This document shows positions 308 to 63,977 of a stretch of 64,000 nucleotides of DNA, in pieces (positions within the stretch are counted from its first letter, which is position 1; each line of letters starts with the position of its first letter). A program made the position numbers and the translations under genes. The notes below the pieces were generated by a model, which was not told the origin of the DNA, made no database searches, and worked only from the letters and a program-made list of their open reading frames with translations. The stretch covers positions 89,919,921-89,983,920 of the forward strand of contig NC_092383.1 of the NCBI RefSeq assembly GCF_030028105.1, given 5' to 3'. The stretch is from Mobula birostris. Its lineage: Eukaryota.

Positions 308-427
308 CTCTCGACCTCAATCTGCCAGTAGGCCTCATGGGTAACAGGGAGCCAGTAGATTGGGCCGGTGTAGTGGTTTGAGTCAACTCCACCAAACAGG
401 ACTTCACTTCCAGATTCACCATTTGTC
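308..427 (-). CDS. pga: copy A exon 6
   Basis: [39 protein letters not shown]; 120 nt. Confidence 0.92.
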
Positions 428-3400
428 CTGGAAAACAACATTCAATAAGAATATCTCAGACTTCAACACTCAAAAGACATTCAGATATTGATTAGTAAGT
501 TGTAGGCATGATGTGCTGTCACCAGCAGTGTGGTGACACTCGTAGGCTGTCACCAACACATCCCTAAAACAAACAGCAAGTTTCAATATACATGAAACTA
601 ATAAAGCTCATCTTTCAATCTTTAAAGGAATAATTTCATGAATATTGCAAGAAAAACGTGCATTTGCAGAGTTAGAGTCTCACAGCATGGAAATGGGGCC
701 TTCAGTCTAACTCATCCATGCTCACCATTTACACCAATCCCACCTGCCCCGTTTGTTCCATGTCTTCCTAAACCTTTCCTAGCCACGTATTCAAGTCATT
801 CTAGACCTTAAATGAGCTGTGCAAGCTGAAGTAAAAATAAAACTCTGAGAATGATGGGCATCTTTATCAGACTGGAGACCAAAATATCTTCAAGTTCCAG
901 TTCAATTAATGGCATCAGCACTGACCTGACATGTTGCACCTGACCCGGTAAATTTCATCTGCTTTTAAGTTTTCAACATTATCGTTATTTTGTATTCATG
1001 ATTTAATTCCTAGAATCCCATTGAACTACAATAAGTAACCAGAATCATCAGAAGAAGAAGCAATGATGGTACCAAGCAAATTAACAAGCGACATGACAGA
1101 TTCTCCAGTAGTGAAGGAAGGTGTTACAACGTGCTAACCTTGTCAAGTAGACAGAAAAGAGTGGCTGTGAAACCAGATGCTGAGACATTATGTTGTCGAA
1201 GACTGTAGTGGCTCCTTCTGCCGCAAGTGATGGGTAGCCCAAGCCCAAAATACCATCGAAATTACAGTAGGTAAAGAAACTGCCGGGTTCAGTCATACTT
1301 AATCCAAACTCTTGTCCATTGATCACAAGATTAGAAAGCTGGTGAGACAGATTTAAAGAGAAATTAATCAGTTACTTATCCCGTCAGGCTGCACATGGGC
1401 ACAGCTCATGGAGCTGCTGCCTCACAATGCCAGTGACCCAGGTTCAATCCCGGCCTTTGGTATTCCCCGCATGACGTTTGCAGATCGGCCCCTGTGTTCA
1501 GGTGGGTTCATTCTGGGTGATCGGATTTTCTCCCATTTCCCAAAGACATGCTGATTGATTGGTTAATTGGTCACCGTCAATTATCCTGGTGGTAGAATCT
1601 GGAGGGTGCTGACAAGACTAAAAGATGATTCATGTTGGACGAATACGTGGTCAGCATGGTTTGGGCCCAAAATTCGACTGTCATCTTTCCCTAGATGCTG
1701 CCTGGCCTGCTGAGTTCCCCCAGCATTTTTTGTGTGTAACTTTTTATTCTGTTAATTTGTACTACTTATTTCTAATTAACATTAATAAACATATATAAAC
1801 TGAGAGTAACACAGTTCTTTCTCCCTAGATTTATTCATCATGTATTTCATTGCACCACCTCTGTAAACTGAACAATTTTCACAATGTATGCCGGTGATAT
1901 TAAATCTGATTCTGCTATGAGGTGATTTCGTTAACTTTCTGTTAGCAGTACAATGGAATACATAATAATAGAGAAGAAACTACAGATTATAGTAAATGTG
2001 TATGAGTTAAATTAAATAACTAGTGCAAAAAAATAGTATTAATGCAAATTAGTGAGGTTGTGTTCATGGGTTCAACGTCCATTCAAAAGTCGGAAGGCAG
2101 GTGAGGGGAAGATGCTGTATTGAAGTATGATTCCAGCCTAATCATCGCAGATAATGATGCTCGGAAGGAAGATTTAATCTGAATGTGGGGAGAATACAAA
2201 GAGTAGATCAAGGTAGGCAGAGACTTAAATGGTTGTTGATGCACCAAGGAGCCTGTGTCCATGCTGTAAAGATTTGTGGTGAAAATCATGATTGGACCTA
2301 ATTTCCTAAGCATAGTTTCAATGATTGTGTGATATCCGGTGGCAGGGGCCCCAGATCTCCAACTCCACAGAGGTCAAAGGTGGCCAGTCCTAGGGAGAGA
2401 GGGCTGTGTGTTTGTGGGTGTGTGGGTAGGAAGGTGGTGGTGGGGGGGGGGAGGAATGGAGCTTCTTTCACTGTTGCTGCATGTTCTGTTCAGATTGTCA
2501 AGCTCTGTGTTTCTGTGGATCTGCTATGTTGGCACAGGAATACATGCCCCCAGTTCATCCTTGGGTACGTTCATTTGTGAACACAAACAAACCATTTCAA
2601 AACATAATTCGATATACAGGAATCCAAATCTGAATATTTACAAATATGCCATTCCATATCCACTTATCAGTTTCATTCCCTGAGATTCATTTTCTTGTAC
2701 GCATTCAGAGTAGAACACAAATTTAACGGAAAAAAACTGCACAGAAAGATGGGCAAACAAGCAATGTGAAAATGAGGACAAGAAAAGCAATGCCAAAAAA
2801 TAACAATAAATAAATACATCAAAATAATATTGAGAATGTTTATCAGTTAGGATCTCTAAGTTTTGGAATACAGGTATTAGTGTGGTTTGAGTTATAAGGG
2901 TGAAGAGTTCACTTACTCTCAGAGTATCGTATCCCAGAATACCGGTCATACTTCCTGTCCCATACTGGATGGACAGATACTGATAATTCGTGCTGAAGGT
3001 TGAGGACTGGGATGGGTTGAATCTGTTGTGCTTCTCTGCAAAGAAACATCCATTTCATCAACGAAACAAAAAGTTTCAACATATCACCCTGCGCCAAACA
3101 AGCCCCTGCCAATAGTTTCCTAAATCTTGTCAAAACACACCAAGCATTGCAAGGCTGGCAGACTCCTAGATTTCTCCTTGAGCCAAGTTGCAAATGTTCT
3201 ACCCCTCACCAGACCAGTGCCCCGGTTTCCACCCACCTTCCAAAGACATGAGGGCGACTAAGTTGTGGTCACGCTACACCGGTGGCAGAAGCAAGTCAAC
3301 ACTTTGCAGGCTGTCCGCTGCACGTCTTTGGAAGCGACACATTTTAACGTATGTTTCAATGGTGCGACACTCACATGACATATAATATACACTGAGTCCC

Positions 3401-63374: not shown

Positions 63375-63839
63375 CAACAAACTATTTATAGATATATCCC
63401 ACAGGGTAGAGCAATAGGCTGTGTGATGTTCAGCTCACATTTACATCAAATAGATTTCACTCCATGAGAAAGGTTCTGGAGTGAATCACTGGAAACCACA
63501 GCTGAAGAGGAAAATCAGGAAAGAAGAGAGGAAAAGAGAGGAATCTGAGAAGAGGCATAATTACATGATGTCAATATTTGCATATCCAGTCCAGATCCAA
63601 AATTCGTAGATTGGTCCTTTAAAATCCCATCCTGGCTGGGCGTTTATTTCAGTTCTCCCGCTTTTTGCATTTTCCTTTCAGTAAAACCCCAGCATTCAAT
63701 AGGGTGTCTTCACCTTCAGGATTCTGAAAGTGACTCCCTGATCTTTGATACTGACGGGTCAGATGAAAAATCAGATGGCTTAAGTCAACCTGCAAATATG
63801 AACTTGGATGGACCTTCAATGGGAACATTCAGGGGCAAG

Positions 63840-63977
63840 TTAGACGGCCTTAGCCAATCCCACTCGGTTGTTTCCTCTGTCGAAGATGGAGTAATACTCT
63901 CTAATGAAGACATCTCCCAGAATCCAGAGGTTTCCACCAGTGCCGCTAAATCCACTGTCGCAGCTATTGTAATCCAT
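63840..63977 (-). CDS. pga: Pepsinogen A-like gene, copy D, terminal exon 9 (rest right of the window)
   Basis: AG acceptor at 63978-63979; [45 protein letters not shown]; same as exon 9 of B and C. Confidence 0.88.

Follow-up and report, generated by a model that had tools for sequence, protein, structure and literature searches.

The window analysed here, a 64,000-nucleotide stretch of the genome assembled under the name Mobula birostris, lies entirely within a single tandem array of near-identical ~22-kb units carrying genes for pepsinogen A, and the array is probably an old one that unequal crossover and conversion between units keep uniform, with purifying selection keeping the copies making the same pepsinogen and raising its dose. 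In this reading, misaligned 22-kb units would recombine, and whole units, old transposons included, would be added, removed or overwritten; copies within a species would coalesce after each species split, and the multi-copy state would endure. Each copy would yield a secreted zymogen that acid would convert to pepsin in the stomach, and selection would likely favour more of this one gastric enzyme, a pay-off in dosage on which we agree with the original prediction. Structure, splicing, patchwork identity, exon conservation and multi-copy relatives are what we observe; the recombination itself, how old the array is in Mobula's ancestry, expression in the stomach and an advantage from higher dose are what we infer. 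Tandem pepsinogen arrays are already known in humans, in other mammals and, as of 2026, in three elasmobranchs, and manta copies are annotated, such that the array alone is no surprise; what is added is the pattern across 21 species, in which the same paralog is repeatedly amplified and its copies are uniform within species, together with direct signs of exchange between units. The array provides a non-mammalian, non-herbivore test case for why pepsinogen dose rises.

Tandem array of ~22-kb units

Self-alignment of the window (self-BLAST) gives three long diagonals at offsets of 21,762, 22,531 and 44,293, with identities of 98.6-98.9%, and the diagonals extend past both window ends, so that the whole window is one tandem array. 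The original prediction had called at least four head-to-tail, near-identical copies of a ~22-kb unit on one strand, in an array running past both window ends; it holds, with the refinement that the window comprises 2.9 head-to-tail units and parts of four genes, all on the minus strand, of which only two (copies B and C) are seen whole. By self-alignment, unit 1 spans 1-21762 (21,762 bp, with a phase set by the window start rather than by a true duplicon boundary), unit 2 spans 21763-44293 (22,531 bp) and unit 3, which is partial, spans 44294-64000. Substitution divergence for the three unit pairs is 0.98%, 1.10% and 0.89%. The tandem array is confirmed as real.

Genome-wide repeats fill the unit, with depths in sequencing run X1 above 700 in 27 of 30 bins. 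A 39-bp minisatellite of 7.1 copies (30662-30933) is the same in all three units (8900-9171 and 53184-53455 in the other two), a LINE-like fragment lies in intron 3 of copy B (25306-26193, plus strand; a 295-codon stop-free stretch with no Pfam match, presumably resembling CR1), and a reverse-transcriptase fragment lies in intergenic DNA (38247-38669, minus strand; RVT_1 E 1e-4, below the Pfam cut-off). The Rfam search gave no match. An AC microsatellite beyond the poly(A) signal, usable as a copy marker, has 15, 18.5 and 27.5 repeats (18978-19007, 40726-40762 and 63262-63316); unit 3 carries a 14-bp duplication at 56632, and unit 2 a TATC expansion at 30635.

Gene copies and gene identity

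Copy B (19530-27365, minus strand; exons 27365-27307, 27203-27041, 26456-26339, 24790-24672, 23091-22892, 22180-22061, 21213-21069, 19910-19812 and 19667-19530) and copy C (41286-49898, minus strand; exons 49898-49840, 49736-49574, 48989-48872, 47323-47205, 45622-45423, 44711-44592, 43744-43600, 41666-41568 and 41423-41286) are intact, as originally proposed: each has an ATG, a TAA, a 1,161-nt frame (386 amino acids plus stop) and GT-AG boundaries at all eight introns. The nine exons measure 59, 163, 118, 119, 200, 120, 145, 99 and 138 nt, and their size and phase pattern is the conserved vertebrate pepsinogen pattern. Copy A is represented by exons 1-6 (308-5610, minus strand; 5610-5552, 5448-5286, 4701-4584, 3035-2917, 1338-1139 and 427-308), with the remainder past the window start, and copy D by exon 9 (63840-63977, minus strand), a sequence that B and C share without difference, with the remainder past the window end. 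A putative TATA-like hexamer starts 61 nt upstream of the copy B ATG (27421-27426, minus strand) and recurs at 5671 and 49959; putative AATAAA poly(A)-type signals lie at 19059-19064 (minus strand) and 19338, at 40820 and 41094 for copy C, and at 63374 and 63648 for copy D. Just beyond the gene's 3' end, a weak similarity to pepsinogen (18969-18613; best E 0.001) was considered as a relic exon and rejected, because a reversed-sequence control scored higher (34.7 vs. 30.4 bits) and HMM and DNA searches with this candidate gave no match.

The copy B protein has no differences from P0012, a RefSeq pepsin A-like protein of Mobula birostris, in agreement with the original call of a pepsinogen in a cartilaginous fish, and has 11 differences from M. 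hypostoma and 37-47 from stingrays, which identifies the source of the window as a manta ray. The 259-codon open frame of copy A is identical over that length to P0014, another M. birostris RefSeq pepsin A-like protein. All three coding differences between B and C are non-synonymous (L18V, K114E and I203V). An exon 2 query returned one protein cluster, pepsin A-like of Hemitrygon akajei, which spans Hemitrygon, Hypanus, M. birostris and M. hypostoma and of whose 27 members 15 are listed and 12 are not. The RefSeq M. birostris pepsin A-like genes (XP_072133908.1, XP_072133912.1 and others) include these counterparts of copy B (P0012) and of the copy A part (P0014); the copy C protein is absent among the 15 of 27 cluster members listed. 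The RefSeq entries are annotation, for which we found no study.

Pfam matches to Asp and A1_Propeptide fall on single exons (A1_Propeptide E 6e-12 on exon 2), and the hydrophobic N-terminus, judged by eye, is a putative signal peptide. Both catalytic D-T/S-G motifs, one per lobe, are present in B and C and align with those of porcine pepsinogen, the best solved-structure match (E 7.5e-131; 2psg and 1psn aligned); in sequence alignments the flap tyrosine and the six cysteines of the three disulfides likewise align with 2psg and 1psn. By its catalytic, propeptide, flap and cysteine features, the predicted product is a pepsin family A1 aspartic protease zymogen. On the mature chain, scores do not separate cathepsin E (411 bits) from pepsin A (410 bits) or from chymosin, and the name pepsinogen A therefore rests on the tree. 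In a 123-row tree, elasmobranch pepsin A-like proteins form three clades (7, 27 and 70 rows) apart from gastricsins, which form a clade of their own, and the window gene falls in the 70-row clade (SH-aLRT 99), together with whale shark Pga1 and skate Pga; the tree has no ctse outgroup, and in it the three elasmobranch clades and a bony-vertebrate clade join in an open fork.

Exon 2 of copy B (27041-27203) encodes two prosegment cysteines, of which the second aligns with a near-N-terminal cysteine of human cathepsin E that we take to be its dimerisation residue; the cysteine at this N-terminal place is thus a feature that cathepsin E also has. Exon 5 encodes an additional cysteine. Orthology of the window gene to ctse was considered and rejected, given its grouping with whale shark and skate Pga, and the elasmobranch ctse sequences of whale shark and skate in the supplement of PMC13389413 are distinct from it by eye. 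Members of the 70-row clade share the short C-terminal loop of chymosin and fish pga, and most of them have one or two prosegment cysteines; the 7-row clade has a long, tetrapod-like loop and no ray member among the matches.

Signs of exchange between units

Differences among units have the look of mutation: they comprise 144 transitions vs. 70 transversions (Ti/Tv ~2), with 40 of CpG type, and private sites number 115, 73 and 101 per unit. Which two units are closest varies with position (chi-square 63.2, df 18, P 6e-7, with clustered sites collapsed), a runs test on private sites gives P 0.02 (clusters collapsed), and the patchwork persists when the first 300 bp, which hold a divergent patch in intron 6, are left out (chi-square 58.3; 0 of 10,000 permutations). 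Units 1 and 2 share an identical tract of 1,389 bp (16840-18228, partner 38590-39978), a length reached in 0 of 5,000 random scatters (mean longest tract, 598), and units 2 and 3 share a substitution-free tract of 1,220 bp (40213-41432, partner 62749-63986; P 0.003) that covers exon 9 of copies C and D; units 1 and 3 share no unusually long identical tract (P 0.10). The 1,389-bp tract is, on sequence grounds, a candidate recent exchange. Patchwork identity can also stem from an uneven mutation rate, and with three units and no outgroup conversion is not separable from crossover.

Exons diverge less than introns. Between copies B and C, exons differ at 3 of 1161 positions and introns at 62 of 6674 (Fisher P 0.02), and for the three pairs of copies exon vs. 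intron divergence is 0.26 vs. 0.93%, 0.51 vs. 1.58% and 0.64 vs. 1.64% (P 0.02-0.04), with the pairs that involve copy A including the intron 6 patch. Across A, B and C, three synonymous (~263 sites) and three non-synonymous (~895 sites) coding positions vary, which is too few for a firm test. Codons 18, 91, 114, 188, 203 and 210 hold copy-specific sites.

The original prediction that all transposon insertions are shared stands insofar as no copy-specific insertion was found among the window's units; it does not extend to all repeat sequence, since 776 bp of copy C is missing in copy B and a patch of copy A is ~10% divergent. The 776 bp lies in intron 7 of copy C (42343-43118; absent from B at 20587) and has 4-bp microhomology at its flanks. 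A repeat that starts at 42337 spans the left break, and a contig from a different organism (organism B, run X5) crosses that break at full depth. The microhomology, the repeat across the left break and the contig across it indicate that the segment was most likely deleted in copy B, and we reject the reading as a new insertion in copy C in favour of a deletion. The patch, part of a repeat within copy A's intron 6 (1-230), has 9 extra bases; of 221 columns, 22 set A apart from B and C, whereas 2 separate B from C. It is possibly a conversion from a dispersed copy of the repeat. Intron 4 of copy A (1339-2916) differs from B and C by ~2% (32 of 1,578), twice the array mean.

Sequencing runs

In run X1, which may be the source sample, several sites have both alleles (43172, 12.7 of 15.6; 49232, 19 of 26.3), and the main contig of this run has the copy A letter at 45226, 49232 and 49753, sites at which B and C are the same, which suggests that there are more copies outside the window. 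Run X5, from organism B and another study, diverges by 2.7% (186 of 6,835 letters) over seven locus-like contigs of the eight shown, with one low-depth contig left out. Contig depths over non-repeat parts are 15-19 for X1 and 40-53 for X5 (5.2 for one X5 piece), with some stray repeat contigs at 3-5; these depths do not represent copy number. Among the sequencing runs examined, no contig record crosses a whole unit, and run X10, which yielded only short, low-depth pieces, was left out.

In run X9, two contigs show splicing at predicted exon boundaries, with gaps corresponding to exons 8 and 3 (99 and 118 nt); they lie on exons 2, 4, 5, 6, 7 and 9 of copy C, at depths of 5-9. The run had been classed as probably DNA, and the spliced contigs point to RNA. 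At 45475 one spliced contig agrees with copy C, and at 48939 the other agrees with copy A, a hint of transcription from more than one copy or allele.

Copy number and within-species similarity across sharks and rays

The same pepsinogen A paralog is multi-copy in 15 of the 21 elasmobranchs examined, including all four myliobatiform rays; the 15 comprise 14 species with at least two distinct proteins plus M. hypostoma (one protein, at least four accessions). All counts rely on automatic annotation, so that isoforms, alleles or haplotigs may be among them. Among the members listed, accessions number at least 7 in Hemitrygon, at least 5 in Hypanus, at least 6 in M. birostris and at least 4 in M. 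hypostoma, with each set on one long contig. Distinct proteins number 7 in sawshark, 11 in basking shark and 5 each in thorny skate, brownbanded bamboo shark and epaulette shark. Six of the 21 species have one protein (Pristis, Narcine, Leucoraja, whale shark, Mustelus and C. plagiosum), and among these Pristis and Narcine are the nearest outgroups, which leaves separate expansions conceivable. White shark has 2 proteins of the window paralog but ~10 and 5 near-identical proteins of the other two pepsinogen A paralogs (clusters of P0047 and P0059). In the available text of the mobulid genome preprint (10.64898/2026.10.27.761883), the M. hypostoma assembly is described as short-read polished, which can blur paralogs, and the RefSeq-annotated assembly named Mobula birostris is assigned to the Atlantic manta, M. 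yarae; that text has no occurrence of 'pepsin' or 'protease'.

Copies resemble copies of their own species: in the 14 species with at least two distinct proteins, the nearest neighbour is from the same species for 57 of 61 copies, a count that leaves out P0037, P0039, P0056, P0083, P0149, P0157, P0163, P0166, P0168, P0170 and P0171 (partial, fused, isoform or long-branch) and in which P0186 and P0200 were placed by cluster rather than by the 123-row tree. Catsharks are the exception, with old, non-homogenised copies that occur across species (47 shared columns). The 90% cluster includes M. hypostoma gastricsin P0008 although it is ~45% different, and skate P0037 groups with pga despite its name, cathepsin E-like; neither clustering nor automatic naming is fully reliable here.

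Manta copies form their own clade relative to M. hypostoma (99/92). Hemitrygon and Hypanus have 5 two-state columns in common (of 18 and 16 polymorphic columns), and Hemiscyllium and Chiloscyllium punctatum share 4 variant columns; the arrays of these two genus pairs are therefore older than the genus splits. Hemitrygon and Mobula have no polymorphic columns in common, so the placement of an array in their common ancestor follows from parsimony only; monophyly of the Hemitrygon copies is not rejected (p-AU 0.216). The comparison of related rays and sharks suggested with the original prediction weakens the independent, young expansion that it had proposed: independence is weakened by the multi-copy state in 15 of 21 species, including a congener and two stingrays that share old variant columns.

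Manta copies are 0-4 residues apart. Their median protein difference is 0.8%, vs. 2.8% between species, which, scaled to the ~20-Mya split of the two Mobula (Poortvliet 2015, as cited in the available text of 10.64898/2026.10.27.761883), places them roughly 6 Myr apart; a similarly rough DNA scaling, which assumes that organism B is a relative of 20-Myr depth, gives 7-8 Myr. The ~1% difference among units most likely reflects the time since the latest homogenisation (some millions of years) rather than the time since the array arose. If turnover replaces entire units, transposons common to all of them are no guide to when the array began; the case is a warning that even 99% identity combined with shared transposons leaves an origin undated.

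Alternative explanations

The array could instead be the independent, young expansion of the original prediction: a single gene multiplied in the manta lineage alone, over the past few million years and alongside many such expansions elsewhere, in a birth-and-death process with no old array behind it. We consider this unlikely. The manta copies are monophyletic, they have no variants in common with stingrays, the nearest outgroups have one protein each, white shark amplified other paralogs instead, and independent PGA expansions are documented in mammals; however, a separate manta expansion would need further expansions in the sister devil ray and in dasyatids, the shared variant columns mark older arrays in two genus pairs, and patchwork identity marks exchange after duplication. 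An assembly artefact, or two haplotypes stacked in tandem, is scarcely credible even with no long read seen across a unit and with the best DNA run possibly being the source sample: three mutually different units cannot be two alleles, their differences favour transitions 2:1 and each unit has private sites of its own, both alleles are present in X1 at a number of sites, and arrays occur in four separately assembled rays. (Manta heterozygosity values in the available part of PMC11789554 are per-SNP values.)

The myliobatiforms in our copy listing feed their embryos uterine milk, a point for the idea that copies are kept for different jobs, such as different substrate ranges or embryo vs. adult digestion, rather than for dose. 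The same idea fits the three of three non-synonymous coding changes between B and C and the variation of skate copies near the substrate cleft (by eye, in supplement rows of PMC13389413), but it is very improbable given the 0-4 residues that differ among manta copies, the conservative nature of two of the three B-C changes and the position of one at the signal/propeptide boundary, the arrays of egg-laying skates and bamboo sharks, and a TATA region that is the same in A, B and C. 

More tentatively, and with some doubt on our part, elasmobranchs may have been turning over a dosage array of pepsinogen A genes continuously from a time before sharks and rays diverged, with three ancient pga paralogs of which each lineage amplifies and homogenises one or more: the window's paralog in rays, sawshark, and basking and bamboo sharks, and the other two in white shark. 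Elasmobranchs with arrays are carnivores or plankton feeders. Mammalian PGA expansions track plant diets; if constant turnover is true, these eaters of meat and plankton would have a dosage locus comparable to amylase and of very long standing, which would run counter to the explanation of PGA expansion by plant diet.

Relation to known pepsinogen arrays

Tandem ctse-pga-pgc clusters of 4, 8 and 18 genes are described in whale shark, skate and catshark (Nagasawa and Inokuchi 2026, PMC13389413), and section 13 of that paper reports no simple link between pepsinogen copy number and diet. The clusters are likewise tandem and share the gene lineage, with whale shark Pga1 and skate Pga1, 2, 5 and 6 in the clade of the window gene; in contrast, the flanking rab7b/frs3 synteny falls outside the manta window, and the main text of that paper includes neither manta nor stingray and has 0 matches for conversion, concerted evolution or homogenisation. 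In the open-access literature, we found no paper on a manta or stingray pepsinogen array or on homogenisation of elasmobranch pepsinogens.

Human PGA has nine exons, with sizes like those of the manta gene. The likeness to human PGA3/PGA4/PGA5 drawn in the original prediction is borne out: these too are head-to-tail, near-identical whole-gene duplicons under non-allelic recombination, with section 6 of a preprint (10.64898/2026.08.17.745382) describing human PGA as turned over by NAHR. The human genes differ in having a separate origin, and copy-number variation between individuals is shown for human PGA, whereas the manta array is known from one window. The manta enzyme differs from pepsin in a shorter loop near the C-terminus (a 5-residue gap) and in its two prosegment cysteines.
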